Assembly: GCA_963845185.1 (NCBI GenBank)
Contig: CAWJRG010000005.1
Span: 64,001 to 128,000, forward strand
Source of the DNA: an uncultured bacterium
GTDB taxonomy: Bacteria; Oederibacteriota; PGYV01; CAWJRG01
Direction of reading: 5' to 3'
DNA length: 64,000 nucleotides
Positions within the stretch are counted from its first letter, which is position 1. Each line of letters starts with the position of its first letter. This document shows, one piece after another, positions 4,063 to 60,708 of the stretch. Below the pieces are notes generated by a model that was not told where the DNA came from, did not search any database, and saw only the letters and a program-made list of their open reading frames with translations. The position numbers were made by a program, and so were the translations under genes.

Positions 4063-4104
4063 TTCTTCTTTCCTCCTTGATGATGTTTATTTTGTAAACC
4101 GTTA

Positions 4105-4157: not shown

Positions 4158-4168
4158 AATAATTATAT

Positions 4169-6598: not shown

Positions 6599-6603
6599 AT
6601 AAC

Positions 6604-6712
6604 ACCTCCAAGCAAGAGTAATTTTTGCAAACCGTCAACAGGTGCAGCAAAAATTTTACTCTTGCTTGCACCCGTTCAAGTCCGAGGCTCAAAAGGCCGG
6701 GGACAAGTGGTG
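6604..6712 (-). ncRNA. Candidate structured cis-regulatory leader RNA or repeat, copy A
   Basis: About 20-bp stem ending at the GGAGG RBS, an alternative GGUGCA/UGCACC hairpin and an upstream GUCC..GGAC hairpin; homologous to 23940-24043. Confidence 0.55.
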
Positions 6713-6770
6713 CGGATAAACATTTTTCCCTTTAAATTGTTGTGTTTTTGGGAATTATTAAACAGGTTGA

Positions 6771-6799
6771 ATTATACTTAATATTTTTCTTGTTGTCAA
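6771..6799 (-). promoter_or_regulatory. Sigma70 promoter for the DUF2298 operon
   Basis: Perfect TTGACA-N17-TATAAT on the minus strand. Confidence 0.8.
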
Positions 6800-6823
6800 C
6801 GGGATTATTGGGTTTAAAAATTG

Positions 6824-31337: not shown

Positions 31338-34300
31338 CTATTCCGCTGTAGTACCTATAATGGCAAATATCTTTACTATCTTCCTCTCTTTGTTTCCTGC
31401 ATTATCCACGCCTTCTACCACGCACACATATACCCCGCTAGCTACTGTCTGTCCGCTTACACTCTTTAAATCCCAGTTTATGCTCCCTGTACCAAGATCG
31501 CCTATCAGTGTTCTCACAAGCTCTCCCGCCATGTTGTAGACTTTTATTTTTATTACTCCGCCCGCGCTTGGCTGCCATGTGAATTTCAATGGTGTTGCCG
31601 TATTTCCTGTGTACGGATTCGGCAATGATTTCACAATACCAAGCAAATTAGCTGTCCCTTCATTTAATATAGTAACTGTTTTGCTTATGCTTGTGTTATA
31701 ACCCCTGTTCGTATTTACAACAATCTGTATTTCATATACTCCGCTTTGCAAATAATTTCCCTGCGTGTTTTTCCCATCCCAGGTTACAGCGTTTGTTGCA
31801 GTGTAATTGATTGTTATCGGCGGAGCTCCATTTCCTACCGGCAATACAGCATTATTATTGGTATTATTGGTTATATTCAAAGACGTCTGGCTGATGCCGT
31901 CATAAGGTGCCTTTATTGTCTGTACAAGCTCTCCTGCGCTGTTAAAAATATTTATTTGCACATACTGTGTTTCGTCAAGTGCTGTTACCTGCTTGGTAAT
32001 TGTATTCGTATGCCCGTATGGGTCAGTTGTTGTTTCCTTTATGTAATACACTCCATTTGCTACATCCTGGCCTGCGCTGTTAGTGCCGTCCCACGTGAAG
32101 TCCGCATATCCGCCTTTTGCCTGGTTAGGCGTCTCTATATCAGGCATCCTTATTATCAGTGACGTGCCTGATCCAGGCAACACCAGCCCTGTCTGGCTGC
32201 CGTTCAGCAATAATTGCATATTCTGTGCCTCTTGCGAAGTAGTTGTATTTGCTACCACTTTCACCAGTTCTCCCGCCTCGTTATACACGCTTATGTTCAT
32301 CGCATAAGGGAAAGGTTGCGACGTCCCTGTAATCGTCGCCGTTGCTGTGGTTGTCAGCGTATTTGTTATCGAAGCTGTAATCGTGTTTGTTTCTGTGGAT
32401 GTCATCGAATAAGTTATCGACGCCGTCGCCGTTTTAGTCGTCGTGGATGTTGTCGTAAGCGTATTAGTATGTGTAGCGGTTATCGTAATAGTTATCGTAA
32501 AAGTGTAAGTACAAGTTTTTGTGAGGGTGACGCTGCACGTAGGACTTGCTGTTTGCGTAACTGTTGACGTATTTGCAGGCGTATTTGTATATGTTGAAGT
32601 AGATGTGTATGTTAGTGTTGCAGTCAGCGTATTAGTATGTGTGTTTGTGGAAGTTGCAGTTATTGTATATGTGCTTGTTAGCGTCTGCGTGTACGTAGCC
32701 GTATCTGTATTTGTATATGTGTATGTTGGCGAAGCCGTGTAAGTCGGCGTTATAGTCGGCGTATTCGTAAATGTAGGCAGTGTTGTTAATGTATTTGTCA
32801 TTGTCGCTGTATACGTATAAGTGTATGTCACTGTCTGCGTGTAAGTGTATGTCGGCGATAGCGTATTTGTGTATGTCGGTGTTGACGTTGAAGTTGGCGT
32901 CTGCGTATTTGTCAGCGTTACTGTATATGTCGGCGTCTGCGTATTTGTCGCTGTTGACGTATACGTATAAGTGTATGTCACTGTCTGCGTGTAAGTACAT
33001 GTCGGCGACAGCGTATCTGTGTATGTAGTCGTTGCTGTTGGTGTAGAAGTCTGCGTATTTGTCAGCGTTACTGTATATGTCGGTGTCTGTGTGTTTGTGG
33101 ATGTCGAAGTTTGCGTGAATGTATAAGTATCCGTCTGCGTATATGTATATGTCAGTGTTAGCGTGCCTGTGCATGTCGGCGTTGCCGTCGGCGTAGAAGT
33201 CTGTGTGCATGTCAGAGTTACTGAATAAGTCGGTGTCTGCGTTTTTGTCGCTGTCGGCGTATAAGTATATGTATAGGTGTCAGTCTGCGTGTATGTTGGC
33301 GTCACTGAAGGCGTATTTGTACTTGTAGCTGTCGGTGTATAAGTATATGTATATGTGTAGGTTGGGGTATTTGTATAAGTGTATGTTGGCGTAGGCGTAT
33401 TTGTAAATGTCGGTGACGGCGTGTTTGTGGGAGTAACCGTGTATGTTGGCGTTACTGTAGGTGTATCTGTAACAGTGGAACCTGGCGGCGGCGGCGTATT
33501 TGTTGGTGACACGCATAACACGTTGAATACAACAGGATTGGAAAATTCCGGTACTATACTCGACGCACCTATACCGCCTACATTTGTAAAACTCTGGCCG
33601 CAAGCTGATGTAGATGCCCACCATGTATATGAACCGCTCTGATCGCTTATATTGCCCAGGCTCCATGTCACCATCTGTGGTGACCCTCCGACGCCTGTGG
33701 CAACCGGGTTGGAGTTTATATACGTCAATCCCGCGGGTATCGTGTCATACAAAACCGCACTTGCCGCAACCCTCGGTATTAATACAGTAAAATTATTATA
33801 TGAATCCTGTACATTGCCGGTGGTACTTGACTGCTGTCCAACTCCAGGCCTCCAGTCAGTATATGTTGCGCCTGCACCGCAGTTAAAGCCAGTGATAGCC
33901 GCGCCTGTATCTGTCCATGTAACCTGGTAAGCTGATGGCTCAGGTTGTCCAATCTGCCATATCTTTGAATTAAACACATAATTATTGCCGTTTTGCGTCA
34001 TCCATGTCTTTGTCCTGTACCATGTGTTACCGGTTATTGTAACTGCATCTGACGCACCGCCATACGTGCAACCAGACCCCGCGCATTTCTGTATGGCCAT
34101 ATACCCGCCTGCGGGATTGGTGTCTATTGATAAAAGAAGGCTATAGGCTTCGGCATTATTGCCTGCCTGTCCGTTGCTCCTCAAAATCACCAGGCCGTCT
34201 GCTCCGGGATATGTCCCGGGGCTTATAAAAACATCCGCCTCAACTATGCCTGTGCATATCTGCACGTTCTCTGTATTTCCAGAAGGGTCATTCAGCAAAA

Positions 34301-35564
34301 GCGCTGGATATGAGTTTGCCTGGCCTGCTCCGGTTAATATCCTGTCTCCTGTACTGCATGGGTCTGAAATTGTCCATGTGCCATAATCGGTATTATACGG
34401 CAAATATTCCCATCCTGACGGCGCTGCCGCCGGGTAGGTGTAAGTATTCAGTGCTGTATCGTCAAACGCCCTGTAGTCCTTAAGCTGGTCTCCGTTTATC
34501 TGGTAATTAAGATAATATGTTATGGTGACAGAAGCTCCCGGTTGTTTCATGAATGTGCTCACGCTCTCCAGTTTTTGCACTGATATTGCTGCCTCGCCCA
34601 CTGTCAGCGTTGCCGAAGAACTGCCGTTATTTCCTCCGATTGTGCTGGTTGCCGTATTTGACACCATCATTCCCGATGCCATCGCCGTAGTCATGCTCAT
34701 CAATATCCATACTGTGCCTGTCTTTGTGTAGATTGAACTTGGGAATGTCCATGTTACCGTGCCTGACATGGTACCTGCTGCAGGTGCATTCACGCTTCCT
34801 CCTGATATTGAACTCGGCCCGACAGACACAAGTGCAAGGTTTCCTCCGCCCGGCAGGCTGTCTGTTATTGTAAACGGCCCTCCATTCCCGTATGTGTAAT
34901 CAATTGAAAATAGAACCAGGTCCCCGACATACTGCAGCACGCCTTCTACCCTTTTATTCAATGTGTATGAATTGGTCAACGGCACCGGCATTGTCCAGCT
35001 TACAGCTCTCGCGTTGCAAGAGCTGCTCGTCAAGTCAGCCCAGTCTTGAGACTGTAAACCTGCGCTTTTTGTACCAACAAGCAGGTAAAGTGTCGTCGAG
35101 CCGCATTCTGTCCCCATGTCCGCAGCATTCGGCATTGTAAGGTTAAATGAGAATGCCTGCGGATAGCCATCGTTGCTGCCGGTACATGTACTGCAGCTTA
35201 ATATTGGCGTTGGACTTATATTCGGCGGCTGCCACCCCATATCATTGCTGGGACCATTCGGACTTGTGCTGTGAACGTCAATGCCTAAGTTGCTTACTAA
35301 AAATATCTGGCCTCCCGAATTGGCAGGCTGAAATGTATTGCTTGTGCTCACTGCAATATCAAGGTCGTTCTCCGAGTTATAAGCATCATGGCATATCTGC
35401 AAATTAACCACAAATTGTTGTCCCCAAGTTGGATTTTGAGGAGTAATACTTAATGAGGTTATTGAAGGATTGGCTGCATAAGCAGTATTACTGGCTATTA
35501 ATAGTATAAATAGTATTATAACTTTGGGAATGTTTATCCGTTTAAAGTGTTTTTGCAGATTCAT
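31338..35564 (-). CDS. Giant secreted (Thr-X)n stalk protein, tandem paralog of 26779-31026
   Basis: Same architecture; identical segments such as PYNTDYGTWTISDPCSTGDRILTGAGQ and CGAGATYTDWRPGVG. Confidence 0.85.
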   Translation of the reverse strand: MNLQKHFKRINIPKVIILFILLIASNTAYAANPSITSLSITPQNPTWGQQFVVNLQICHDAYNSENDLDIAVSTSNTFQPANSGGQIFLVSNLGIDVHSTSPNGPSNDMGWQPPNISPTPILSCSTCTGSNDGYPQAFSFNLTMPNAADMGTECGSTTLYLLVGTKSAGLQSQDWADLTSSSCNARAVSWTMPVPLTNSYTLNKRVEGVLQYVGDLVLFSIDYTYGNGGPFTITDSLPGGGNLALVSVGPSSISGGSVNAPAAGTMSGTVTWTFPSSIYTKTGTVWILMSMTTAMASGMMVSNTATSTIGGNNGSSSATLTVGEAAISVQKLESVSTFMKQPGASVTITYYLNYQINGDQLKDYRAFDDTALNTYTYPAAAPSGWEYLPYNTDYGTWTISDPCSTGDRILTGAGQANSYPALLLNDPSGNTENVQICTGIVEADVFISPGTYPGADGLVILRSNGQAGNNAEAYSLLLSIDTNPAGGYMAIQKCAGSGCTYGGASDAVTITGNTWYRTKTWMTQNGNNYVFNSKIWQIGQPEPSAYQVTWTDTGAAITGFNCGAGATYTDWRPGVGQQSSTTGNVQDSYNNFTVLIPRVAASAVLYDTIPAGLTYINSNPVATGVGGSPQMVTWSLGNISDQSGSYTWWASTSACGQSFTNVGGIGASSIVPEFSNPVVFNVLCVSPTNTPPPPGSTVTDTPTVTPTYTVTPTNTPSPTFTNTPTPTYTYTNTPTYTYTYTYTPTATSTNTPSVTPTYTQTDTYTYTYTPTATKTQTPTYSVTLTCTQTSTPTATPTCTGTLTLTYTYTQTDTYTFTQTSTSTNTQTPTYTVTLTNTQTSTPTATTTYTDTLSPTCTYTQTVTYTYTYTSTATNTQTPTYTVTLTNTQTPTSTSTPTYTNTLSPTYTYTQTVTYTYTYTATMTNTLTTLPTFTNTPTITPTYTASPTYTYTNTDTATYTQTLTSTYTITATSTNTHTNTLTATLTYTSTSTYTNTPANTSTVTQTASPTCSVTLTKTCTYTFTITITITATHTNTLTTTSTTTKTATASITYSMTSTETNTITASITNTLTTTATATITGTSQPFPYAMNISVYNEAGELVKVVANTTTSQEAQNMQLLLNGSQTGLVLPGSGTSLIIRMPDIETPNQAKGGYADFTWDGTNSAGQDVANGVYYIKETTTDPYGHTNTITKQVTALDETQYVQINIFNSAGELVQTIKAPYDGISQTSLNITNNTNNNAVLPVGNGAPPITINYTATNAVTWDGKNTQGNYLQSGVYEIQIVVNTNRGYNTSISKTVTILNEGTANLLGIVKSLPNPYTGNTATPLKFTWQPSAGGVIKIKVYNMAGELVRTLIGDLGTGSINWDLKSVSGQTVASGVYVCVVEGVDNAGNKERKIVKIFAIIGTTAE

Positions 35565-35756: not shown

Positions 35757-37799
35757 CTATTGCATCACAGATTGTTTTTTATCAATTATTGTTTTCAATT
35801 GCATTGCATTTATGTTATTGCTGTTAAATTTAATAGCATTATCAACATATTCAGTTGCTTTTGACGTTTCGCCCCTGTTTAAGTAAATAGCTGCAAGATA
35901 TGAATAGGCATAAGATGCTTTAGGGTTTAATTCAAGTGCTTCGTTCCAGTATTTTTCCGCATTTTGCGTATTGCCCAAATTGTAATAACACGATCCTATA
36001 TTTATTAGTGTCTGGTCCGAGGGTAGAAAAAGGTAGCTTCTTTTATAAAGTTTTATTGCGGTATCATAATGGCCGGCCCTGTTTAATTTATCCGCAACTG
36101 TAATAAAACTCCATGCATAATGTTTTACAGCCAACAGGTTCGTGAAATCGTCATAATTTATTTTATCGCCTATTATGCCTCTGTAGGAATATAAATCAAA
36201 AAAAATATTATTTGTAAGAATTTGTTTATTGCCTCCTGTCAATACTCTGTTAACAATGCCAACTGGTACAAAAGGAAGCTTCTGCCATTCCGCCGTAAAT
36301 GCGTTAGAATAATATATTCCTTTTTCGGAATTTGACATCATTGTTTTGTACAAATAATCAGTTCCGCTATTTTCCATTTCCGGCAATATTATTGCGTCAT
36401 GGTAATCATTTTTCAGTTGTTTCCTGTACCAATCATACTCGAGTAAGCGCGTGTTAATAAAAACAAAATCCTTTTTATTAACAAAAGATTCGTAAAGTGC
36501 GGAACTCATATTGAGATCGCCTTCTGTGAAAAAAAGCGACTTTTCAGGCAGGGTTTTTATAATATTTTCAGCATAATCATACCCAATGAAATACCTTGAG
36601 TAATCGGTTGCGTTAAATGCAGGCAAAATAATAGCTGTTGATATTGCTAAATATATATTTCTTTTTGTTCTTTGATCAATTTTTTTCAAAAAATTTATAA
36701 TAAAAGAGATGCCCGATGAAATGAATATAGAAATAAAAATATAAGACGATGTAAAATAAGGTTTTATTACCCATTCTATGCCGGGCTTGGGTGTAGAAAT
36801 TGAAATTATGCCTACCACAATAAATATATACGCAATGCTTATTGTTATTGCTTCTGTCTTAAATTGCTTTATTAAAAAATACGTTCCGGGTATTAAAAAC
36901 AATACAACATAAAAAGGGTACTCGTTCGTCAATAGATTTTTTATATAAAACCATAAAAGATGGAATGTATCAGTTATAGAATGCGCGCTTTCTGCATACC
37001 TGTATTGCTCCCTACTAATCAGCCAGAATAAATCCCTGATTGTCTTTATTTCTCCCCATGCAAAAACCGGTATGTTTTGACTTCTGATAAATGCAAATAA
37101 ATATACGGATGCACCAAGCAGAAAAAAAATTCCGCCAATAAGCAAGAATGCCGTTTTGAAATATTTTCGGTTAAAAATTAAATAATATAATACTGCTGGA
37201 AAAATTACAGCCATGCTTTGCCAGTGATTTCCCATTGATAATCCGTAAACAAAAGAAAATAAGTAAAAATATTTGATATGCTTTTTTAAATTAAATAATG
37301 ATAAAAAAATTATAATTGTAAAAAATGCGTTAATTGTATAAATGCTTCCCTTTGCCGACAAGGACTGTAAAAACGGCGTTGTGCAGAATAAATACAGCGC
37401 CGCCGATATAAAAGCAAAAAAATTATTCCCATATTTCGTATTTTTGTTTATAACAAAATATCTATTTACAAATATAAAAACCAGCAGGGCTGTTATTATA
37501 TTAAAAACCAATGCGGTTAGATTGCTTCTGTACATGATGTTGCCGGCTGGAATTAACGTGAATATCTTGCCGATAAGAGTATTCAGAGGGTATCCAGGCG
37601 GGTGCTGAATGCCGAGGGTATAAAAAGCCGTGGTGGTTTCCGGACTGTCATCGGAATTAAAAGTTGGCGCTATTTTTAAAATCCCGAATTGCCAAACTGC
37701 AATAAACGCGGTCAAGATAATCAAAAGCATCCTGATTTTGGTTGGTTTATTGAAAAAATGAAAAATCTGCATTTGATTGTTCTTAATTTGCTTAAGCAA
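35757..37799 (-). CDS. DUF2723 / TMEM260-like GT-C glycosyltransferase with C-terminal TPRs
   Basis: DDSPE..LGIQHPPGYPL, GLSMGNH, FTEGD, multiple TM segments, TPR repeats; exact start uncertain. Confidence 0.85.
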   Translation of the reverse strand: MLKQIKNNQMQIFHFFNKPTKIRMLLIILTAFIAVWQFGILKIAPTFNSDDSPETTTAFYTLGIQHPPGYPLNTLIGKIFTLIPAGNIMYRSNLTALVFNIITALLVFIFVNRYFVINKNTKYGNNFFAFISAALYLFCTTPFLQSLSAKGSIYTINAFFTIIIFLSLFNLKKHIKYFYLFSFVYGLSMGNHWQSMAVIFPAVLYYLIFNRKYFKTAFLLIGGIFFLLGASVYLFAFIRSQNIPVFAWGEIKTIRDLFWLISREQYRYAESAHSITDTFHLLWFYIKNLLTNEYPFYVVLFLIPGTYFLIKQFKTEAITISIAYIFIVVGIISISTPKPGIEWVIKPYFTSSYIFISIFISSGISFIINFLKKIDQRTKRNIYLAISTAIILPAFNATDYSRYFIGYDYAENIIKTLPEKSLFFTEGDLNMSSALYESFVNKKDFVFINTRLLEYDWYRKQLKNDYHDAIILPEMENSGTDYLYKTMMSNSEKGIYYSNAFTAEWQKLPFVPVGIVNRVLTGGNKQILTNNIFFDLYSYRGIIGDKINYDDFTNLLAVKHYAWSFITVADKLNRAGHYDTAIKLYKRSYLFLPSDQTLINIGSCYYNLGNTQNAEKYWNEALELNPKASYAYSYLAAIYLNRGETSKATEYVDNAIKFNSNNINAMQLKTIIDKKQSVMQ

Positions 37800-37804
37800 A
37801 ATTA

Positions 37805-39490
37805 TTACTTCTTAATCACTATGTTTCTTTCCAGCGTATAATTTTGCCGGCTGTTTTTTACGACCATCCTCAGTATATATAATCCGCTTCCGGCAATGAA
37901 ACCATTGTCTGTTTTGCCGTCCCATACCACTGTATTACCGCCTGCCAGGCTTCCGTCTGAGCCCTTATTTATTTCCTTTTTCCACAGTACTCCGCCGTAT
38001 ACGTTATAAACCCAAAATCTCACATCACTGTCATAGTCAAGGTAATAATTTATCGCCGTGGTTTCCCTTCCTGCCGCAAACGGGTTTGGCTGGTTTATAA
38101 ATTTATGGCTGTTTGGCGTTGATACGGAACATATAAGCTGAACAGTTTCTGTAACCGGCATGCCGTGCGGCTGGGCTGAAATCACAGTCCTTGTGTTAGC
38201 GTCCGGCGCTGTGAAGACGATGCCTGCGTTACCGTAATAATCTGTTGTTGCTGTCCTGGTACTAATGCTGCCCTCACCACTTATTATTGCGAAATCCACT
38301 GCTGTATTTGATACCGGATTTAAGTAAGCATCCTCGATAAAAGCCGTCAGGTTTGCCGTATTGCCTTTTCCCAATGTATAATTATCCGCGGTAAAGCTGC
38401 AAACAACAGGACTGCTGCTGTAAATATGCATCAAGTTTGACGGCGACACTGCCGTTATTGAGATGGAATTGTTGCAGCAGTAATAACTAGGAACTATTTC
38501 CAGATTTGGCACGCCCCAAACCGTATCCCTCTTATTATAACTTACCATTGTCATGCCCGCGCCATTCGTAATTGAAAGAGTATTATTGGGCGCAGATATG
38601 GGTACGGTCATGTTAGGGTTCGTGCTCTGAAAATATATTGTTGCAGTCCATGTGAAGCTGTTTATCGGAGGCCCGCCTTGTGAATGTGACATTGTGACTG
38701 TCACAGGGAAAGGTACCCCCGCAATTGCCGCTATCGGTACGCTTGCCGATATATAATATTGCGTCAAAGTGTTGAACCAAACTTGTTGAGAAAAGAAAAT
38801 AGTCGGGTTATTGAAATCATTGCAATACAATTGCTGGTAGGCTGCCTCGTCCGGGCTGGGAGTTACTGTTAAACCAAAATAACCCATGTCTCCTGTTGAA
38901 CTCAGGTCAATGGTCACTGGTGTAACCGAATAGGCACAAGTTTTTACTGTAAGCATTACTGTCGGCAAATTCGTCGTGATCATATTGTAATAAGCATCCG
39001 TAGCTATAACTGTCACATTAAAAGGTATTGTAGTTGTCTGGTTGGCGGGAGAACCAGTGTACCCGGAAACTGTGCCCGGCGCATATACCATTCCATCGGT
39101 TAAGAGCAATAATTTTGAGTAAGTCCCCGGCATCACGTTAACGTTCGCAGTACTTGTAACGCCCAATGAGTAGTCGGTTGCGGTCAGGGTTACAAGATTT
39201 CCAGCGCCTGTTAAATAAACCGTTCCGTTCCAAAAACCTGCGGAGAAATTAGGCGTCACATTTGTGCTGGTTGCCGAGATACCTACGTAGCCAACCGATG
39301 CGGTTAAAGTTACGTTTCCCGAGTAGCCTGTCATCACGGAATTATTTGTATCATAAGCGGTAATCGCCAAGGTCATTGGTTGGCCTGCCGTACCACTGGA
39401 AATAGACAACATAAAATACCCTAAACTATCGGCATAAACCGCGCTAGCCGTGATAAACAACAATGTTATGAATAAAAACATTTTTTTCAT
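37805..39490 (-). CDS. Secreted Ig-like (Big_1) protein with C-terminal PNP/FlgD-like domain
   Basis: Signal peptide; DAYLNPVSNTAVDF..TTDYYGNA; NQPNPF..WDGKTDNG..SGLYI. Confidence 0.8.
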   Translation of the reverse strand: MKKMFLFITLLFITASAVYADSLGYFMLSISSGTAGQPMTLAITAYDTNNSVMTGYSGNVTLTASVGYVGISATSTNVTPNFSAGFWNGTVYLTGAGNLVTLTATDYSLGVTSTANVNVMPGTYSKLLLLTDGMVYAPGTVSGYTGSPANQTTTIPFNVTVIATDAYYNMITTNLPTVMLTVKTCAYSVTPVTIDLSSTGDMGYFGLTVTPSPDEAAYQQLYCNDFNNPTIFFSQQVWFNTLTQYYISASVPIAAIAGVPFPVTVTMSHSQGGPPINSFTWTATIYFQSTNPNMTVPISAPNNTLSITNGAGMTMVSYNKRDTVWGVPNLEIVPSYYCCNNSISITAVSPSNLMHIYSSSPVVCSFTADNYTLGKGNTANLTAFIEDAYLNPVSNTAVDFAIISGEGSISTRTATTDYYGNAGIVFTAPDANTRTVISAQPHGMPVTETVQLICSVSTPNSHKFINQPNPFAAGRETTAINYYLDYDSDVRFWVYNVYGGVLWKKEINKGSDGSLAGGNTVVWDGKTDNGFIAGSGLYILRMVVKNSRQNYTLERNIVIKK

Positions 39491-39519
39491 TTTTTATCTC
39501 CTTGAATTTCGAAAAACCT

Positions 39520-41436
39520 TCAACTTATTTTCATGTATTCTTCTATTGTAGTCGTTCCTTCAATAAGCTTGTCAAATGCTGTTTCTTTTAAGGACTTAAA
39601 CCCGTTTTTCTTGTTTTCTTCCCTTATTTTTTTTGTAGCTTCCTTATTTATAAGCATTTCCTTTATTTTTTCGTTTATCGCTATCATTTCAAACACGGCT
39701 GTCCTGCCTTTATAGCCGGTATTTGTGCAATTTGAACAGCCCTTTCCTTTATAAAACACAGGTTTTTTATTGGAAAAGCCTTCTGCCTGCAGAACATTTA
39801 TTATATCGCCAGATGGTTCGTAAGGCGCTTTGCAGTTTTTATCTATCTTCCTCAAAAGCCTCTGCCCCAGCACGACAAGAGTATTTGAAAGAACCACATA
39901 AGGTTCCAGGCCCAGGCTTATTATAGTCTGCAAAGCTTGAAACGGATCCGCGGCCCTTACTTTTGAGATCACAAGGTGGCCACCTGCTATTGCTTCAAAA
40001 ACCGCTTCTGCTGTTTCCTTATTCGCTATATCGCCAACTGCTATTACATCGCAGTCCTGCTCCGCAAGGTAAGTAACGGCCTGTCCATAACTTTTCCTGT
40101 TTACTTTTGTCTGGTTTACGCCCTGCAACACGTAATTTGAAGAAGCGTCCTCAACCGTAAAAATATTTATATGCGCCGTGTTAATTTCCGAAAGTGAAGA
40201 ATAAAATGTGGTTGTCTTGCCGCTGTTTGTCGGCCCGGCAATGAGGATAAGCCCGCTCGGCATTTTTAAATATTTCCTGAAAGCATTCAACAGGGTTTCT
40301 TCCATACCTGCCTCATTAAGTGGCATTATTGTATTTTCAGCCCTTAAAATCCTTAAAAGAATTTTTTCCCCGAAGATGGTCGGGAAAGTGTAAACTCCCA
40401 TACTTATTTCCTTGCCCGCAAGCCTCATCTTCAGCTTGCTTTCTTGCGGCAATGTCCTTTCAGCAACGTTCATCTGTGCAAGTTCTTTTATCTTGTTTAA
40501 TATCCCGTTGTATAATGTTTTTGGTGCGGTCTCTACTTCATACAGAGTGCCGTCAATCCTCCTCCTTACCCTGCACTTTTCGGCAAAAGGCTCAATATGC
40601 ACGTCAGTAGCATTTGCGTCATAGGCATCCGAAAGCAGGCTCATTAAAAATGAATTAACCGGCGTGTCCTGGGATATGGCTGCCTGCGCGAATTGTGTCT
40701 CAGGCAGCTTGTATTCCTGCGCCGGTTTTGAAGGTTTTTCACTTATGAATTCCGGTTCCTGTTTCTGCTGAGCCGGTGTTGGTTTTCCCGGTTCGGGTGC
40801 CTTTGACACAGGTTGTTGTGCTGCATGCTCAGGTTTATCCTGCTTCGGCACCAAGTCTTCGGCGTAAACTCCGCGCGTAATTTTTATTTCCTGCGGTGTT
40901 TCCTTGTGCCTGCCGGATAATCCCTGCGTAGGCGTGGACATAATATCCTCAAGCTCGTCTGTTTTTGCCTTGGCGATTTCGCCTGTATCTTCTTCCTTAA
41001 ACCCAAAGTATTTGTCGACCAGCTTTTTAATATCCTCGCTGGGCGCCAGCCTTGAGTCTATGTCGCACCTTGTCGTTGCCTTCATGTCGTCAATCACAAG
41101 AAAATTCATAGGATCTGACATGGCCACAGTTATTGTCTTGCCCTGCTTATTAATCGGTATCAATTTTTCGTTGCGCATGACGGATTCCGGCATTAGTTTT
41201 AAAACATCCTTTTTTATTTCTTGAATTTCTTCGAGGTTTACATAAGGAACCCCCATCTGGTACCCTAAAAAAGTCCAGAGTATTTCTTTTGAAATATACC
41301 CCATCTTCATAAGAATCTGCCCGATTTTCTCTCCGGTTTTTCTTTGCTCTTCAAGGGCGTCTTTTAGTTGTTCCCTGGTAATTATGCCTTCTTCAAGAAG
41401 CATTTCACCTATAAGCATATTGCGCGGTCCTGCCAT
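39520..41436 (-). CDS. GspE/PilB-family ATPase with N-terminal MshEN-like domain and degenerate catalytic motifs
   Basis: IGEMLLEEGII..LKDALEEQ; ATDVHIEP, RRRIDG, GPTNSGKTTT, GCSNCTNTGYKGR; altered Asp box, Walker B and His box. Confidence 0.88.
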   Translation of the reverse strand: MAGPRNMLIGEMLLEEGIITREQLKDALEEQRKTGEKIGQILMKMGYISKEILWTFLGYQMGVPYVNLEEIQEIKKDVLKLMPESVMRNEKLIPINKQGKTITVAMSDPMNFLVIDDMKATTRCDIDSRLAPSEDIKKLVDKYFGFKEEDTGEIAKAKTDELEDIMSTPTQGLSGRHKETPQEIKITRGVYAEDLVPKQDKPEHAAQQPVSKAPEPGKPTPAQQKQEPEFISEKPSKPAQEYKLPETQFAQAAISQDTPVNSFLMSLLSDAYDANATDVHIEPFAEKCRVRRRIDGTLYEVETAPKTLYNGILNKIKELAQMNVAERTLPQESKLKMRLAGKEISMGVYTFPTIFGEKILLRILRAENTIMPLNEAGMEETLLNAFRKYLKMPSGLILIAGPTNSGKTTTFYSSLSEINTAHINIFTVEDASSNYVLQGVNQTKVNRKSYGQAVTYLAEQDCDVIAVGDIANKETAEAVFEAIAGGHLVISKVRAADPFQALQTIISLGLEPYVVLSNTLVVLGQRLLRKIDKNCKAPYEPSGDIINVLQAEGFSNKKPVFYKGKGCSNCTNTGYKGRTAVFEMIAINEKIKEMLINKEATKKIREENKKNGFKSLKETAFDKLIEGTTTIEEYMKIS

Positions 41437-41439
41437 ATT

Positions 41440-43158
41440 TTATTCCCCTTTTTTCTTGAATATATCGAAAATCGACTTCTTTTTCGAATCAGGCGGCGTG
41501 CCGCCTACTTCTCCATCAGGCGCTTCAGGCCTTGCCTCTGCCTGCTTGTATTCCTGTCCAGCATACGCCTTAGTAGTCCTGTCCTCCCGGACAATCTTTT
41601 TTTCAAACTCCGTACCCATATGCTCTTTCATTTCATCGACTTCAGAAGACGACAGGCCGCTGTCAGGCGTAATCTTTATTACCTGTTCCTTGCCGGTCAT
41701 CTGGTCTTTGGCAGAAACTTTTATTATACCATTTGCGTCTACGTCAAACATAACTTCTATTTTCGGCTCACCTTTACTAGCCTGCGGTATACCGACCAAG
41801 TCAAAAGTCCCTATTAATTTATTGTCTACTGCCATTGGCTTTTCGCCCTGATAAACTTCAATCCTCACAAACGACTGATTATCTTTTGTCGTGGTATATA
41901 TTTCGCTCTTTCTTATCGGAATTGTGGAATTTTTCTCGATTATCTTGGAAAATATGCCCCCCTCGGTTTTTATGCCGAGTGAAAAAGGAGTAACATCAAG
42001 AAGTAAAATGTCCCTGATATCGCCTTTTAATACCGACGCCTGGTGTGCGGCACCTGCTGCTACAGCCTCGTCCGGGTTTGCACCGAGGTACGGCTCTTTT
42101 TTAAATATTCTTTTTACAGTATCCCTTACAAAAGGCATTTTTGTCTGGCCACCTACAAGCACAACTTCATCTATATCCGAAGGCTTGAAACCCGCATCGG
42201 AAAGGGCCCTGTCGCATGGTATCGCTGTGCTCTCTGACAAATCGCGTGTTATTTCCTCAAGTTTTTCTCTTGTAAGTATTGTCTTTAAATGTTTCGGGCC
42301 TTCTTTTGAAACCGCGATAAACGGCAGGGTTATCTCAACTGAGTCAAGGGTTGACAAATTTATTTTCGCTTTTTCTGCTGCGTCTTTCAACCTCTGAAGC
42401 GCGACCCTGTCTGTCCTTAAATCCACATTCTCAGCTTTGTAAAATTCCGACACAAGCCAGTCAATCACTCTCTGGTCGAAATCATCGCCGCCTAGGTGTG
42501 TATCGCCGTTTGTGGATATTACCTGGAATATCCCCTGCCCAAGCTCAAGTACAGAAACATCGAAAGTGCCTCCTCCAAGGTCGTATATGACTATTCTCAT
42601 CCTTGTCTTGCTGTCAAAGCCGCTGGCTAAAGCCGCAGCAGTCGGCTCGTTGATTATCCTCACGACTTCCATGCCCGATATCCTGCCGGCATCTTTTGTC
42701 GCCTGCCGCTGCGAGTCGTTAAAATACGCCGGAACCGTGATTACGGCTTTTTCTATGGCTTCGCCGAGATACATTTCTGAGTCCTTTTTTAGTTTCATAA
42801 GTATCATTGCGGATATTTCAGGCGGGGAATATGTCCTGCCCATGATCTCAATTTTCACGTCGCCGTTTGATGCCGGCGTTAATTTATAAGGTATTAATTT
42901 AATGTCTTTTTCCACAACTTTATCCGTCATTTTCCTGCCCATGAATCTTTTTATAGAAAAAACCGTGTTTTCTGGGTTCATTATCTGCTGCCTTTTTGCT
43001 GCGTTACCCACAAGTATTGTCCCTTCTTTTGTAAAAGCGACAACAGACGGTGTAGTCCTGAACTTTTCGTCGTTTAAGACTATCTGCGTCTTTCCATCCT
43101 CTATGACTCCTACGCAGGAATTTGTCGTTCCTAAGTCAATTCCTATAATTTTCGGCAC
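41440..43158 (-). CDS. dnaK: Hsp70/DnaK-family chaperone, lid-truncated (572 aa), probably a specialised paralog
   Basis: [35 protein letters not shown], linker DILLLDV; short C-terminus. Confidence 0.85.
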
Positions 43159-43170
43159 TTGGATTCTCCC

Positions 43171-43746
43171 TTATTGCCCGTCAATCTTTTTTGCCTTATC
43201 TATTTCCCTAATAAGCTCCTGCAGTTTTGCCGTTGTTCTCTCATAAGCCGGGTTTTCCTGATCTAGTCTTACGGTTTCGTTAAAAGTCCTTACGGCATCT
43301 GCAAGTTTGTTTGTAGCAACATAAATAACGCCCATGTTAAACATTGCCTCAGCCGTTTTAAAAGCATCAAAAGACTGTTGGAATTTTAAAAGTGCTTTGC
43401 CTTTTTCCCTTTCAAATGCTTCCACCCCTTCGTTGAAATATATCATCGCGTCCTCGTATCTTTTTTTATCTCCACCCTGAAAAATTCCAAATTTATATTC
43501 CTTTGTCTTTTCCTTTAACGGATAAAATATTAAAAAATTATAAATCTTCCTTTTTATCGGGTCGGATAGGATTCTGTGCGCTTCCACTGCCTCGGAGGTT
43601 TTCACATGTGCCCACTCCGCTTTGTCCGGATTATGGTCCGGATGGTACTCATAAAGCTTATCTCTGAAAGCGCGCTCGATTTCCTCATCGGTTGCTGCTG
43701 GATTAACATCCAGGAGTTCGTAGTAATTTTGCTTTTTTTCTGGCAT
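43171..43746 (-). CDS. J-domain (DnaJ-class) protein with TPR
   Basis: NYYELLDV...YHPD...ILSDPIKRKIYN; C-terminal TPR AEAMFNMGVIY. Confidence 0.88.
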   Translation of the reverse strand: MPEKKQNYYELLDVNPAATDEEIERAFRDKLYEYHPDHNPDKAEWAHVKTSEAVEAHRILSDPIKRKIYNFLIFYPLKEKTKEYKFGIFQGGDKKRYEDAMIYFNEGVEAFEREKGKALLKFQQSFDAFKTAEAMFNMGVIYVATNKLADAVRTFNETVRLDQENPAYERTTAKLQELIREIDKAKKIDGQ

Positions 43747-43757
43747 TATCGTAACCT

Positions 43758-45209
43758 CTAAAACTTCGTTCCTGTAAGTTTAAAAATATCAAGGTTGGTG
43801 CCGTCGCTTAAAACAACCGAGTCTATTCTGTCGTATTTTGCGAGCGTATCAGTTAAGGCCACCACCTCTTTTGTAGTAAAAATATCCGTCGTATATTTCT
43901 TTTTTTCGCCATATTTCGAGGCAAAACCCAAATAATCAATTATAGCATTATACTTTTCAACGGACAATTTATCAATAAAATTTTTGGCGATGTTTCCTGC
44001 TGATATTATAAAGTTTATCTTGAAGTCCTCCACGGTATACCCTAAAGTCAGCTTGCTTTTTACCATGTTCACAAGCTCCTTCCTTATTTCTACTGTAGAT
44101 ATCAGTGCGCGCTTCGCATCGTCTGTATGCTGAAAAGGGTATCCGAATGAAATCAATACAAACCTGTCCGTAACTTTAAAAATTGCTCCCTGGTAATTTA
44201 TTGCAACCGCTGTAACTTTTTCTATAAATTTTTTTAAAATATCTTTTAATTCTTCGCTTATCAGTTCAAAGGTAAAATTCGACAGGGCCAATGTATCGAT
44301 AAAAACAAAAATTGCCCTGTTTTCATCTCCTGTTGAGGCCGGATAATAATCCTTGGCTATTTTGTCGGTCATTTCCTGGTAAGTGAGCATCTCATATGCC
44401 TTTTTCATGCTGTCTATCTCTTTTAACCCTTCCGCGACTGTGTCAAAAGCGTCCTTTATCCTGACTTTTTCCTTGAGTTCCACTATCATTCTGTTGAAAT
44501 CATCTGCAAGCACCCCGACTTCATCGTTGCTTTTTACGTTAACCGACACGTCAAGGTTGCCTTCCGCGACTTTTCTCATACCCGCCGCGATTATATTGAA
44601 CGCCTTTGTGATTATATCAGCCAGCGTCCACGCCCCGCCTAATCCGAAAAGCAGCAACAAAACTGTAAGGCCTATCATTGTAAATATAGTCATATGCAGC
44701 TTCTTTAAATAATCCTTCTTTGAAAACTTAATAATAACTGAAAACTGCTGCTCTCCTTTCATCTCAATCTTCTCAGTTTCTTTTGCGGTATAGTCTATTT
44801 TGTTGTTTACGAGGGTCTTGATAAACTCATCTCTATCCTCGTTTATTTTAATTTCCGGAAAGTCGCTCTTTAAAAGCGCTGTATTTATCGCCTTAGCTTT
44901 TATGGAACCTGTGGGGTCCATTATCGCGATGAGAAGTATGTTTTTATCCAGGTTTGTCATTATATTCATAACCTTGTCGTAAATAGCCCAGTTTACATTC
45001 TTTTCTTGCAATGGATTCACACCAATGCGCACAGCGCTTATTGTATTAACGATTTGGAGTATGCTTTTTTTCATGTCGTTTCTCTGGATTGAAACATTCA
45101 GAGTTAGCGAATAATAAAAGGTTACCCCCATTGTAATAATAATCAAAACAAATATAAGTATTGCTATTTTATATCTTAAGCTGAATTTTACTTTTCGAAG
45201 GGTTGCCAT
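43758..45209 (-). CDS. Membrane sensor: 2 TM + periplasmic domain + HAMP + degenerate class III cyclase-like domain
   Basis: HAMP VAEGNLDV..NDEVGVLADDFNRMI; cyclase-like IFVFID, GAIFK, ISFGYP, DDAKRAL; catalytic N/R motif missing. Confidence 0.7.
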   Translation of the reverse strand: MATLRKVKFSLRYKIAILIFVLIIITMGVTFYYSLTLNVSIQRNDMKKSILQIVNTISAVRIGVNPLQEKNVNWAIYDKVMNIMTNLDKNILLIAIMDPTGSIKAKAINTALLKSDFPEIKINEDRDEFIKTLVNNKIDYTAKETEKIEMKGEQQFSVIIKFSKKDYLKKLHMTIFTMIGLTVLLLLFGLGGAWTLADIITKAFNIIAAGMRKVAEGNLDVSVNVKSNDEVGVLADDFNRMIVELKEKVRIKDAFDTVAEGLKEIDSMKKAYEMLTYQEMTDKIAKDYYPASTGDENRAIFVFIDTLALSNFTFELISEELKDILKKFIEKVTAVAINYQGAIFKVTDRFVLISFGYPFQHTDDAKRALISTVEIRKELVNMVKSKLTLGYTVEDFKINFIISAGNIAKNFIDKLSVEKYNAIIDYLGFASKYGEKKKYTTDIFTTKEVVALTDTLAKYDRIDSVVLSDGTNLDIFKLTGTKF

Positions 45210-45228
45210 AAGATAACTTGTTTTCTCC

Positions 45229-46599
45229 TTATTTCGCCACGGATTCCATCGCGTTTACGGATGAAACCGCGTCAGCGTAATATATTACGCCGTTTTCTGC
45301 AATGCAGGACGATTTGATGTCTGCCTCAAAAAGCTGAGACCACTTTTTATCCCCTGTTTTGATGTCTATGGCAAAAATCTCTTTGCCTCCTGCACCGTAC
45401 AGTACATCGTTTACAAGTAAAGGTGCAGTCATTACCTTGCCTGCTATTTCCGCTTTCCAGATCAGCTTGCCGCTTTTCGCGCTCAGAGCATATAGATTTT
45501 TATCATTACTTCCCATGTATAAAACGCCGTCCTTTATCACAGGCGCTGACGACAACCATCCTTTGGTTTCAAAAACCCATTGCAATGCGCCTGTCATCGA
45601 ATCAAGGCAATATATTTTTTTATCATCGGCGCCAAAATAAAGTTTCCCTTCTGCTTCAGCTGCCGTTGAGAATACAGGGCCTTCTGCCTGGTACTTCCAT
45701 GCCGGCTTGCCGCTTTCCACGTCAAGTGCATAAAGTATTCTATCGGCTGAACCAATATAAACAAGGCCGTTTGCTATAGTAGGTGAGCCGGCTACAGGAC
45801 CTCCTGTTTTGAATACCCATGCCTGCTCTCCCGTCCTTCTGTCAAAAGCATAAACATTCGAGTCCATGCACCCTATGTATACTACATTTGAGAAAACAGC
45901 AGGCGAAGAAGCATTAATCGCCGCTGGCAGGTCTTTTTTCCATAAAATCTTTCCTTTTGTGTCAACCGCGAAAAATGTCCCGAGTTCATTGCCGAAATAA
46001 AGTATTTTTCCGTAAAGCGCCGCGGTTGAAGATACTGTACCGCCAACCGAGATTTTCCACACTTGTTGTCCCGTGACTTTGTCGATGGCGTAAAAATTAT
46101 TGTCTTTTGAACCGATGTAAATATTCTTATCATCCATTATAGGTGATGCCGAAAAACCCATGCCTGTTTTGAATTTCCATTTAAAATCAAGCGGCGGCAG
46201 AATGTTCAATCCGTTATAAAAATCGTGTGTAGGAAGGCTCCTAAACATCTCCCATACATACGCGCCTTTTTCTCTTTTTTCGCTTGTAAGCTGCTTTGAA
46301 GCGCTGACCACCGCAACTTTTTGTTGCTCTATCTCCTGTTTTAATTTTGTAATCTCGGTCTTGTTTGCTTTGCCTGTCTTTTTTGTGCTAAGTTCTCCTT
46401 GTAATTCGGCAAGCTTGTCGCGCTGCTCCTTTACCTGTTTCTGCAGACCTTCGAGTTGGTTTAATTCCTCTTCGCCCGAAACATTAAGGTCTATTTTTAT
46501 TTCCTCCTCGGACTTTTCATTACCGCATCCGCCCAAGCAGCCGTTAAACAAAACCATTATGAATATACCTATCGCCCCAAAGCATACTATTCTCTTCAT
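45229..46599 (-). CDS. Lipoprotein with coiled coil and PQQ/BamB-like beta-propeller
   Basis: Lipobox FNGC; coiled coil; about 8 repeats of YIGSxDxxxYAxDxxTG..WxF; ATG at 46599 has an RBS-like AAGGGG (alternative start 46629). Confidence 0.85.
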   Translation of the reverse strand: MKRIVCFGAIGIFIMVLFNGCLGGCGNEKSEEEIKIDLNVSGEEELNQLEGLQKQVKEQRDKLAELQGELSTKKTGKANKTEITKLKQEIEQQKVAVVSASKQLTSEKREKGAYVWEMFRSLPTHDFYNGLNILPPLDFKWKFKTGMGFSASPIMDDKNIYIGSKDNNFYAIDKVTGQQVWKISVGGTVSSTAALYGKILYFGNELGTFFAVDTKGKILWKKDLPAAINASSPAVFSNVVYIGCMDSNVYAFDRRTGEQAWVFKTGGPVAGSPTIANGLVYIGSADRILYALDVESGKPAWKYQAEGPVFSTAAEAEGKLYFGADDKKIYCLDSMTGALQWVFETKGWLSSAPVIKDGVLYMGSNDKNLYALSAKSGKLIWKAEIAGKVMTAPLLVNDVLYGAGGKEIFAIDIKTGDKKWSQLFEADIKSSCIAENGVIYYADAVSSVNAMESVAK

Positions 46600-46671
46600 A
46601 AATGTAATGCCCCTTTCGATTTTTTTCATTTATTTGTAAGTAAAAACACCATTTTCTTAATCTATACTTTT

Positions 46672-46700
46672 ATATTATCAAAAAACAGGGGGTGTGTCAA
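46672..46700 (-). promoter_or_regulatory. Probable sigma70 promoter for the PQQ-to-DUF2723 operon
   Basis: TTGACA-N17-TAATAT. Confidence 0.55.
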
Positions 46701-46864
46701 TTAGTTTAAAGCTTGGAGTTTCCCGGAAATTTTATATTGATTATTCCAGGAATTCATTAGTTTCCTCAGATGTTTCAAGCTAAAAACAAAATCGTTTTTA
46801 ACTCGATAAAATAGGCAAACCCTGCCTTTTACTTAAAAAATCATGTCTATCCCTCGGCTTTCAA

Positions 46865-47230
46865 TTATTCGCCTATTATCTCTGTTATAACCTTTCTGTC
46901 CTGGTTGTTAAGCGTTATAAATTCAATGCCAAAATTATTTTTACTTGCATCGGTATCGAGCCACTTTATCTCGGCAAAAGTCGTAACCGGCTTCTCGTTG
47001 CCTTCCACAAATATTTCAACCCTGATAATGTCTCCTTGTTTTGCCTTCATTTCCCCTTCTATCCGTGCTCCGCCAAGGCTGATATTTTCAGTTCCACCCT
47101 GTTTTTTTGCTACTATTCCCTTTATTTTCTCAAGGTCGTCTTCCTGCCCCAATACCTTGTATTTGACTTTATATTTCTTGTCTACTCTAATGTGCTGCCT
47201 TTTTTCTATATAAAGCCTGCCTTCGTCCAT
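46865..47230 (-). CDS. Stand-alone PilZ-domain protein (c-di-GMP receptor)
   Basis: EKRQHIR (RxxxR), NISLGG (D/NxSxxG), FGIEF. Confidence 0.88.
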   Translation of the reverse strand: MDEGRLYIEKRQHIRVDKKYKVKYKVLGQEDDLEKIKGIVAKKQGGTENISLGGARIEGEMKAKQGDIIRVEIFVEGNEKPVTTFAEIKWLDTDASKNNFGIEFITLNNQDRKVITEIIGE

Positions 47231-59385: not shown

Positions 59386-60681
59386 TTATGCCGCAACCTT
59401 TTTTATCTTTTCAATAACGTCCTTTAATATAAGTCTCATTTTGCCAACATTAATATTCTCATCTCCAAGCATAAAAAGTACTCCTGCCCATATCTCGTTA
59501 AAAAGCAACTGTCCTTTTTGGGAAGCAATTACAACTTGATTGAGTTTCCCTTGTTTTGTATCCCTTACCATCTGTTCAGTTTTTTCAACAATTGTAGATA
59601 TTACCTGGCTCGCTTCATCTATATTTATGCTTTTAGGAAGCATATTTGCGACTAAAGATCCGTCCCTTGATATTAGCAGGCTACCTGTTAATCCGTCAAC
59701 ATTCTGGAGCTCTTTTAAAATTGCTTCTATATCTTTAACTTTCGCCGGTGCAAGCGAAATCTTTTTACTCGTTTCTGTCTTACTTGCTGCAGGTTTGATT
59801 TCCTTTTTTTCTTCCTTTTTTTCTTCTCTCTTTGGCTCCTGTTTTGTTTCCTTCTTCTTTTCCTCGGCTATTTCTACATCTTCATCTTCTACTGCATGCT
59901 TCATCACATCAAGTATATCTTCTGCTGTTATTTTATCCGAAACCGGTGCTTCACTGTTTTTTGCCGCTGCTGTTGCACCTTTGTCCCTTTCTTTTTCTTT
60001 ATACAGCTTTTTTTCTTGAAGGCTGTATACCTCACGAAGCCTTTGCTGCACAATAAGATTTTCGGAATCTCCATCTAAAATTTCTTTATATATTTCAACA
60101 GCTTTATCAAACTCCTCTTTTTTTGTATATAATTCCGCCGCTTTAAGACTTTTTGTTATGTCAATTTTAGGCTTTACGTCTTTAAGTGGCTCTTTTTTCG
60201 TTTCCGGCTTTTTTTCTTCTGCCTTTTTCGGCTGTGGTTGTGGATTCTGAACAACCTCCGGTTCCTGTTTAAAAGCAAGTGCTTCCTTTAATTTTTCCTG
60301 TGTATCAATGTCCTCCGGATTAAGCGACAGCACTCTCTGAAACTGATCTATGGCCTCGGCATACATTTTTTTTTTGAGATAAATATTGCCCAGCATAGAA
60401 TGAACCATTATATTATCAACATCTACTGCTTCAACTTTTTTCAGTTCTTCGCTTGCCTCATTCAACATATCTTTTTCAAGGTAAATCCTTCCTAAAACAA
60501 CCCTTGCAGAAGTATATGTCGGATGCTTTTCCAGGCCTTTTGTACAAACTTCAATTGCGTCATCAAGCATACCGCTTTTACGGTATGCGTCTGCTAGAGG
60601 CACGAAAATCAGCGATTCGGGGTTTTGAGATAATTTTTTCTTGAGTTCCTCTATTTCTGCCGTAACGGCATCACCTGCCAT
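59386..60681 (-). CDS. TPR + Roadblock/LC7 fusion protein
   Basis: FVPLADAYRKSG TPRs; C-terminal VDGLTGSLLISRDG..NVGKMRL; ATG at 60681 follows GGGGAGG. Confidence 0.82.
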   Translation of the reverse strand: MAGDAVTAEIEELKKKLSQNPESLIFVPLADAYRKSGMLDDAIEVCTKGLEKHPTYTSARVVLGRIYLEKDMLNEASEELKKVEAVDVDNIMVHSMLGNIYLKKKMYAEAIDQFQRVLSLNPEDIDTQEKLKEALAFKQEPEVVQNPQPQPKKAEEKKPETKKEPLKDVKPKIDITKSLKAAELYTKKEEFDKAVEIYKEILDGDSENLIVQQRLREVYSLQEKKLYKEKERDKGATAAAKNSEAPVSDKITAEDILDVMKHAVEDEDVEIAEEKKKETKQEPKREEKKEEKKEIKPAASKTETSKKISLAPAKVKDIEAILKELQNVDGLTGSLLISRDGSLVANMLPKSINIDEASQVISTIVEKTEQMVRDTKQGKLNQVVIASQKGQLLFNEIWAGVLFMLGDENINVGKMRLILKDVIEKIKKVAA

Positions 60682-60708
60682 ACAAAAAATCCTCCCCGTC
60701 AATCTCGG

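Follow-up and report, generated by a model that had tools for sequence, protein, structure and literature searches.

The window analysed here is a 64,000-nucleotide stretch of DNA from an uncultured bacterium of the Oederibacteriota (GenBank assembly GCA_963845185.1, contig CAWJRG010000005.1, positions 64,001 to 128,000), the genome of which is 3.5 Mb in size and 99% complete. Our subject is a row of seven minus-strand open reading frames (ORFs) within it, five of which form an apparently undescribed and tightly conserved module. The seven ORFs are separated by gaps of 19, 11, 12, 3, 29 and 5 bp. Searches against Pfam and NCBIfam assign to them, in order, a PQQ/BamB-type propeller, HAMP, DnaJ with TPR, HSP70, MshEN with T2SSE, Big_1 with FlgD-Ig, and a TMEM260-like domain with TPR, and a PilZ gene lies upstream. 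A first-pass annotation of the sequence had described the same layout, with seven co-directional genes 3-29 bp apart behind a TTGACA-17-TAATAT promoter, PilZ upstream and two Thr-rich giant proteins downstream, and each of these elements was recovered in our analysis. The promoter is of the sigma70 type, carries a TG extension, lies at 46672..46700 on the minus strand and marks the predicted operon start. Promoter-like matches are frequent overall (70 found, against 47 +/- 7 in shuffled sequences), so a lone match is weak evidence. The call is firmer here because the site is conserved: in 33 of 34 loci of relatives, a TTGACA-17/18-TA...T site occurs within the 160 nt that precede the lipoprotein gene.

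Five of the genes make up the core, and every gene that we name between 26779 and 47230 lies on the minus strand. The first core gene (45229..46629, with orthologs in 37 of 99 genomes) encodes a lipoprotein with a coiled coil and a PQQ/BamB-like beta-propeller; its start is most likely the second ATG, at 46599, a correction of the ORF call. The second (43758..45209) encodes a receptor-like protein in which a transmembrane (TM) helix, a PAS-like periplasmic domain, a second TM helix and a HAMP domain precede a degenerate class III cyclase fold. A co-chaperone with a J-domain and TPR, referred to as J-TPR, is encoded by the third (43171..43746), and a DnaK-type Hsp70 that lacks the helical lid by the fourth (41440..43158). 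The fifth (39520..41436) specifies an MshEN domain, a low-complexity linker and a PilB-family pseudo-ATPase, here called pseudo-PilB.

We surveyed 99 genomes of the phylum, in which the operon-bearing lineages are a Goldbacteria-labelled order (hereafter the order) and the FCPU426-type families f15 and f18. Named homologs mostly carry the label Candidatus Goldbacteria (one Spirochaetia); in the sister lineage the usual label is candidate division FCPU426 (one Firestonebacteria). Orthologs of the lipoprotein and operon-type orthologs of J-TPR (E < 1e-77) mark the identical 37 genomes, which comprise 22 of the 24 order genomes and every one of the 15 from f15 and f18. In 29 of 36 relatives the genes for the lipoprotein, HAMP protein, J-TPR, Hsp70 and pseudo-PilB form an unbroken row in this sequence; contig ends interrupt the remaining seven loci, and none shows an altered gene order. 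The HAMP gene is in two ORFs in one genome (G071), and the Hsp70 was not found in another that is 61% complete (G015). The gap between hsp70 and pseudo-pilB is 3 nt here and 3-4 nt in 15 of 17 order loci. In f15 and f18 the row is flanked by smc and recJ, and the receptor and lipoprotein are 27-38% identical across the two lineages. To judge from gene content and order, the conserved unit is therefore these five genes, a module that is narrower than first proposed and excludes the glycosyltransferase. In the literature searched, which left out most subscription papers and supplements, we found neither this operon nor a lid-less Hsp70 with a membrane tail or a HAMP pseudo-cyclase described; in the available main text of the Goldbacteria paper PMC7031533, pili and DnaK go unmentioned.

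The loss of catalytic residues is clearest in pseudo-PilB. We compared 32 operon orthologs (17 from the order, 15 FCPU426-type) with 21 intact controls. Four positions separate the two sets completely, with 0 of 32 orthologs and 21 of 21 controls having the RQDP Arg, the DxR Arg, the second Asp-box Glu and the Arg that follows the Walker B Glu. The Walker B Glu itself is absent from all 17 order proteins and kept in 11 of the 15 FCPU426-type ones, which also keep the second His in 13 of 15 cases. The Walker A Lys/Arg is kept throughout (32/32; Lys in 30, Arg in 2). Measured against active PilB/GspE, then, the Walker A Lys remains, and the Walker B, Asp-box, RQDP and N2D features are lost. We take the Asp-box glutamates, the RQDP Arg and the N2D arginines to be catalytic in PilB, and on that assumption pseudo-PilB is likely dead as an ATPase. 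Its best-kept part is the MshEN domain (88% within the order, against 66% for the C-terminal domain), which scores 66 bits against NF053729, where the cut-off is 38, and in which the (R/K/L)LG...G...L...L..Q motif occurs twice, the residue in its second place being Ile. An extended consensus of (R/K/L)LG has been described, in which Leu or Lys in place of Arg accompanies tight binding (available text of PMC11731258). Between 10 and 17 GGDEF matches per genome were counted in the five genomes checked. The MshEN domain of pseudo-PilB is thus predicted to bind cyclic di-GMP (c-di-GMP).

In a quick tree and a careful 23-row tree, pseudo-PilB forms one clade (100/99) that groups with the pilB of pilB-pilT-pilC operons, giving moderate support to descent from a pil-operon PilB. 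The pil loci examined in both operon-bearing lineages have no pilB beside pilT, an absence that would fit relocation of the gene and its co-option into the operon.

A similar picture emerges for the receptor. Its topology was obtained from a profile search and an AlphaFold2 model, and its cyclase fold matches those of CyaB and Cya2. In the active site, the first Asp (42/42) and the Lys (41/42) are retained, and the second Asp (1/42), the Asn (13/42) and the Arg (6/42) are not conserved; an invariant Tyr occupies a position where active cyclases have small or varied residues. Since we take the two metal-binding Asp residues and the Asn/Arg pair to be the catalytic residues of class III cyclases, this protein has the fold of an active enzyme and not its active site, and its cyclase domain is likely dead. 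A profile search over 1.84 billion representatives was used to place this loss. Among 57 of the 150 listed matches that were examined, five have no cyclase domain, and 51 of the 52 that do keep the second Asp and the Asn, the exception being an FCPU426-type member. In this sample, therefore, the dead form looks confined to the two lineages. HAMP-cyclases whose motifs are intact make up the nearest relatives of the receptor, and the periplasmic domain of one of them, labelled Firestonebacteria, is related to that of the receptor. The lipobox Cys of the operon lipoprotein is invariant in 32 of 32 rows. Decay into pseudogenes was considered for the two pseudo-enzymes and rejected, as the ratio of nonsynonymous to synonymous substitution rates (dN/dS) is 0.01-0.21 for both, with many dS values near saturation; the receptor cyclase domain spans that whole range, and the ATPase part of pseudo-PilB gives 0.02-0.10 in 11 pairs.

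The Hsp70, by contrast with these two proteins, keeps its ATPase sites intact. Of its 572 residues, 4-533 match Pfam HSP70, and its orthologs are 560-581 aa long. Residues D8, T12, K55, R56, K70, E171, T198 and E262 are present in 29 of 29 sequences, and the equivalent of E264 is Asp in the order. Compared with canonical DnaK, it has the ATPase motifs, the linker and the GrpE salt-bridge residues, and departs in lacking the helical lid, in falling short of about 640 aa and in lacking Met or Leu at arch position 404, where Glu is found in 29 of 29. DnaKs have Met or Leu there, and arch residues tune specificity, according to the available text of PMC8215388, which also describes loss of the nucleotide-cleft salt bridges in HscA and HscC. 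That loss is not seen in the operon Hsp70, and because the salt-bridge residues are kept, the housekeeping GrpE is likely its exchange factor. Its TIGR02350 score (783) is below the cut-off of 823 and it passes the NF001413 cut-off; it falls below the HscA model cut-offs, and no HscC model is in its match list. In the AlphaFold2 model one helix follows the beta domain, and a disordered tail follows that, with a low-confidence helix at 563-568. The tail ends in a basic stretch with two Phe residues invariant in 29 of 29 sequences, and this basic-amphipathic motif (41443..41490) may be a membrane anchor or, alternatively, may bind into the protein's own substrate pocket. The HPD motif of J-TPR is intact in 31 of 31 rows. 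Short Hsp70 paralogs with differing tails, accompanied by neither receptor nor pseudo-PilB, also occur in families f17, f20, f13 and f11 (L066, L069, L071, L074, L067, L068, L073), and in f17, f20 and f11 they adjoin a related J-TPR gene.

Several further claims of the first-pass annotation can be assessed at this point. It had called the HAMP protein and the PilB-like protein probable pseudoenzymes, the MshEN domain a c-di-GMP module, and the Hsp70 and J-TPR a dedicated pair within an undescribed operon, and all of these calls hold: the catalytic positions are lost as tallied above, the MshEN motif fits the binding consensus, the two chaperone genes are contiguous, and the operon is real, looks undescribed, is constant in order and is found in a single set of genomes. 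It had also argued, from the absence of grpE, hrcA and a full-length dnaJ, that this is not the heat-shock locus, and proposed looking for canonical copies elsewhere. The three genes are indeed missing from the locus, and canonical copies exist. The genome encodes a canonical 650-aa DnaK with a lid (C5:329313), a grpE-dnaJ pair (C5:787594-789381, grpE being named by eye from its sequence) and two motif-intact PilB-family genes (C10:195775 and C5:488744). The operon Hsp70 is thus not the only DnaK of the genome, and the five-gene locus is neither a heat-shock nor a pilus-motor locus. Beside one of the intact pilB copies lies a further PilB-family gene (L076:4335-5763; C10:194335-195762 in this genome), apparently in two overlapping ORFs, which may reflect a frameshift or an assembly error.

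We then asked what the operon tracks with. Order genomes have active PilB, PilC and PilT. PilC, however, was found in 0 of 15 f15/f18 genomes, against 74 of the other 84, and active PilB was not found in five of five near-complete FCPU426-type genomes, in which the PF00437 matches over the cut-off are pseudo-PilB, a Tad-type ATPase and PilT only. The PilT of these families has lost the His-box His in 15 of 15 cases (12 of 12 controls are intact) and is under purifying selection all the same (dN/dS 0.03-0.17). PilA-like, PilMNOP and PilQ genes are retained in the five FCPU426-type loci read, and PilM in five of five genomes tested. As the operon persists without PilC or active PilB and in genomes with a degenerate PilT, it is not simply a regulator of a working pilus motor. 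Their pil locus can be described in its own right as a motorless pilus scaffold (L055:13292-19915, L058, L059, L062-L064, L095-L109), and a Tad locus is also present in these genomes. A flagellar link was tried and set aside: FliG is present in both order genomes that lack the operon (G008 and G020) and in only 7 of 15 FCPU426-type genomes, and FlhA was not found in G028, G054 and G050. To judge from these genomes, neither a working pilus nor flagella are required for the operon's presence.

Of the 37 operon genomes, 36 encode CheA, and neither of the two order genomes without the operon does; one of these, G020, lacks pilM, pilT, pilB and pilC as well. The chemosensory cluster of the source genome (C5:524784-537399) encodes two CheC proteins, CheA, CheB, CheW, CheD, CheY and CheR, in line with the set of CheA, CheW, CheY, CheC and a methyl-accepting chemotaxis protein (MCP) expected from the PilB-StkA-Dif pathway of Myxococcus. 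Directly after cheA-cheC is a gene for a 710-aa FtsA-like actin-fold protein with a long C-terminal extension (L125:12634-14763; C5:522630-524762 in the source genome), present in both operon-bearing lineages (L056, L057, L060, L065). In f18 and in G028 the cheA-cheC cluster is located just downstream of the pil genes.

The surroundings of the module are more variable than the module itself. A stand-alone PilZ gene (46865..47230) with RxxxR and NxSxxG motifs is followed by a hairpin at 46827-46813 and is a separate unit, outside the operon; PilZ is upstream of the operon in 19 of 21 order relatives and in none of the FCPU426-type loci. An MCP-like gene precedes PilZ in 19 order relatives. It was considered as a core member and rejected, since the window does not have it at this place and FCPU426-type genomes contain nothing that matches it at the level of an ortholog. 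The MCP-like protein (L005:5467-6690 and orthologs) has two TM helices and almost no periplasmic domain, and a paralog heads a flagellar operon in the source genome (C9:262073) and in G019 (L133). A cassette encoding a UPF0164/PorV-like TPR protein, anti-sigma-type kinases, a HAMP membrane protein and a STAS protein (L077:4637-9461; L005, L014, L015, L016, L020) precedes grpE-dnaJ in the source genome, but the MCP-pilZ-operon block in several relatives.

Downstream, a secreted Ig-repeat protein with an FlgD-Ig tail resembling those of the type IX secretion system (37805..39490) is an accessory gene found in the order only. It directly follows pseudo-pilB in 18 of 18 order loci with the next gene visible, is replaced by recJ in FCPU426-type loci, and retrieves only generic FlgD-Ig/Big_1 clusters in a cluster search. 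The last gene of the row, encoding a TMEM260-like GT-C glycosyltransferase with TPR (35757..37799), is a local insertion outside the conserved unit. Beyond it are two neighbouring genes for Thr-rich giant secreted proteins, one with an FlgD-Ig tail (31338..35564) and its paralog (26779..31026); they are 21% Thr and have a promoter-like site of their own at 35681-35653 (11/12 matches). The gene after the Ig gene is of the giant type in 7 of 13 relatives where it is visible, and a TMEM260 gene in 0 of 13. With 25 TMEM260-like genes and 52 Thr-rich giants in 3.5 Mb, the genome may itself hold a large bacterial protein O-glycosylation system. Elsewhere in the window, large membrane proteins are encoded at 2173-9412 (a PMT_2-like glycosyltransferase, a DUF2298 protein and one without a Pfam match), and a TPR protein with a C-terminal Roadblock/LC7 domain at 59386-60702, a few genes downstream of the window-ending pilQ-aroC-aroK-aroB block.

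The operon can be compared with several known systems. In M. xanthus, a PilB made ATPase-dead at Walker A still signals for exopolysaccharide production upstream of the Hsp70 StkA and then Dif (available text of PMC5544727 and PMC4319316). The PilB-StkA-DifA/C/E pathway shares with our system an ATPase-independent signalling PilB, a short Hsp70 that is not the housekeeping one (540 aa in StkA) and, in the genome, a chemosensory system with CheC. As far as those texts describe it, however, the signalling PilB of Myxococcus is the working motor and the genes are unlinked, stkA lying with stkB/stkC, whereas here a separate dead PilB copy shares an operon with the Hsp70, J-TPR, the pseudo-cyclase receptor and the lipoprotein. 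In Synechococcus, DnaK1 binds PilB and a response regulator, and the DnaK1-DnaJ1-PilB-PixG system thus likewise has a dispensable DnaK paralog that binds PilB and, in the cyanobacterial case, a chemosensory regulator; its PilB is active, and the available text of PMC13710413 describes no such operon, pseudo-cyclase or lipoprotein, and our system differs further in persisting without PilC. The operon seems to resemble both pathways in its working, a likeness that would be one of function. HscA/HscB and HscC/DjlB/DjlC offer short Hsp70s with changed arch residues that adjoin their own J-protein genes (PMC8215388, in the text available), but the operon Hsp70 is DnaK-like (61.6% to the genome's DnaK), keeps K55/R56 and lacks the lid entirely. 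The PilZ-DnaK proteins CsdK1/CsdK2 with CdbS also tie c-di-GMP modules to a specialised DnaK (PMC10313047, in the text available); here PilZ is unfused to DnaK and outside the core, and the c-di-GMP input would be the MshEN domain of pseudo-PilB. Class III adenylyl cyclases such as P. aeruginosa CyaB share the fold of the receptor, which differs in its lost second metal Asp, its unconserved Asn/Arg, a 17-residue coil insertion after HAMP and a conserved C-terminal Phe.

The reading that we tentatively favour, as a serious possibility short of a probable one, is that the operon encodes a membrane-bound relay that senses c-di-GMP and the envelope and is run by a chaperone. It builds on features read directly from the genomes, namely the gene set and its order, the promoter, the lost catalytic residues, the purifying selection, the missing lid, and the intact HPD motif and Hsp70 ATPase sites. 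The lipoprotein would bind the PAS-like periplasmic sensor of the receptor, both sensing the envelope, and HAMP would reset the dead cyclase dimer into a conformational docking surface. The basic-hydrophobic tail would hold the Hsp70 at the membrane, and J-TPR would aim the lid-less chaperone at pseudo-PilB. Without a lid, the chaperone may bind and release one native client in fast switching, in place of folding proteins in general; that client would be pseudo-PilB, reading c-di-GMP and docking on PilM of the pilus base. The output would most likely go to the CheC/CheD-type chemosensory system or to surface-polymer or adhesion control, not to pilus extension. A joint complex prediction of J-TPR, pseudo-PilB (255-638) and two pseudo-cyclase domains scored 0.00 and speaks neither for nor against the relay. 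A bolder version, which we consider unlikely, is that the type IVa pilus now serves as an envelope-spanning sensor without a motor. The lid-less, membrane-tethered Hsp70 would then be its only ATP-consuming switch, remodelling the c-di-GMP-binding pseudo-PilB under control of the receptor.

A number of observations weigh against the relay. Each protein-protein contact in it is one that we infer, and the organisms are uncultured. In FCPU426-type pseudo-PilB the first MshEN motif has Glu/Asp in place of the consensus Gly in 15 of 15 sequences, and the split of pseudo-PilB from the genome's active PilBs has a support of 90/89 only. The membrane role of the Hsp70 tail leans on a likeness to MinD-type targeting helices, and its hydrophobic moment is only 0.36-0.55, compared to 0.29 for the end of the canonical DnaK. 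The operon is dispensable for a working pilus, since G008 has kept PilB, PilC, PilT and PilM while lacking it. CheA is also present in 37 of 62 operon-less genomes; moreover, the two order genomes that lack both CheA and the operon are small (1.6 and 1.7 Mb; 89% and 94% complete), so that general gene loss or assembly gaps could explain what they lack, and related genomes are not independent of each other, which leaves the joint loss of CheA and the operon as a lead only. Finally, another 31 genomes, which do not have the other three genes, carry relatives of the J-TPR gene, and four of these genomes (family f13) also lack CheA; the chaperone pair may therefore have a different client of older standing. 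In five loci of this kind that were read, J-TPR sits beside other short Hsp70s among housekeeping genes, indicating that the pair predates the operon.

That greater age also suits a simpler explanation, dedicated maturation, in which J-TPR and Hsp70 fold or stabilise pseudo-PilB or the receptor, and the lipoprotein and receptor signal independently. HscB and HscA, which serve IscU, provide the model for this. The 3-nt gap between hsp70 and pseudo-pilB and the intact HPD and ATPase sites are consistent with it, and a folding role of DnaK1 on PilB is among the models in the available text of PMC13710413. Lid truncation, on the other hand, weakens the holding of folding clients (PMC8215388, in the text available), and maturation leaves unexplained why the arrangement and the promoter of the five genes are the same in lineages whose receptors and lipoproteins are only 27-38% identical, and we regard it as unlikely. 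We find it improbable that export or O-glycosylation of the surface proteins, the Ig protein and the Thr-rich giants, is under the control of the module, as the first-pass annotation had inferred. The gene-neighbourhood test that it proposed bears out the five genes, which co-occur in fixed order, and within the order the positions of the Ig and giant genes after pseudo-pilB speak in its favour; 6 of the 25 TMEM260 paralogs are within 3 kb of a giant, and TMEM260 is reported to glycosylate Ig-like domains (available text of PMC10214176). The TMEM260 gene, however, is in this place in none of the 13 relatives, PilZ and Ig are confined to the order, and FCPU426-type loci have no PilZ, Ig or giant neighbour. 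TMEM260-like and FlgD-tail genes are present in the operon-less G020, G008 and G036, and G034 carries the operon with one weak TMEM260 match only, so that neither conserved linkage nor co-occurrence is seen and glycosylation or export is not supported as the unit's function. The giants have their own promoter-like site, and with 52 of them adjacency must be common.

Two further proposals concern the pseudo-enzymes themselves. Pseudo-PilB could be a c-di-GMP-controlled dominant-negative brake on the active PilB/PilC motor, with Hsp70 stripping it from mixed hexamers, which would suit the order, where active PilB, PilC and PilT are present and where G020 lost pilus genes and operon together. As a general role this is refuted by the FCPU426-type families, which have no PilC (0/15) and a degenerate PilT (15/15), and in which pseudo-PilB is the sole PilB-family gene product in five of five genomes checked and still under strong selection, making the brake highly improbable overall. 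It is equally improbable, in our judgement, that the pseudo-enzymes are still active, with the cyclase pairing as a heterodimer with one of the intact HAMP-cyclase paralogs that the genome has, and pseudo-PilB working as a slow ATPase. The retained first Asp and Lys of the cyclase and the Walker B Glu and second His of FCPU426-type pseudo-PilB would allow this, but neither cyclase half-site is complete (second Asp 1/42, Asn 13/42), the invariant Tyr is in place, and pseudo-PilB lacks three catalytic-motif arginines in 32 of 32 sequences.

In Myxococcus and in cyanobacteria, DnaK paralogs act between PilB and surface behaviour, with the direct client and the J-partner left open in the available texts of PMC4319316 and PMC13710413. 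The operon described here unites a signalling-only PilB, its Hsp70, a J-protein and an upstream receptor in a defined five-protein set. It would provide a natural case of a bacterial Hsp70 that has no lid and is likely anchored in the membrane, and also a lineage that keeps type IVa pilus genes under selection without a working motor. Should the pilus indeed have become a motorless sensor, this would be an Hsp70-powered signalling machine with no described equivalent.

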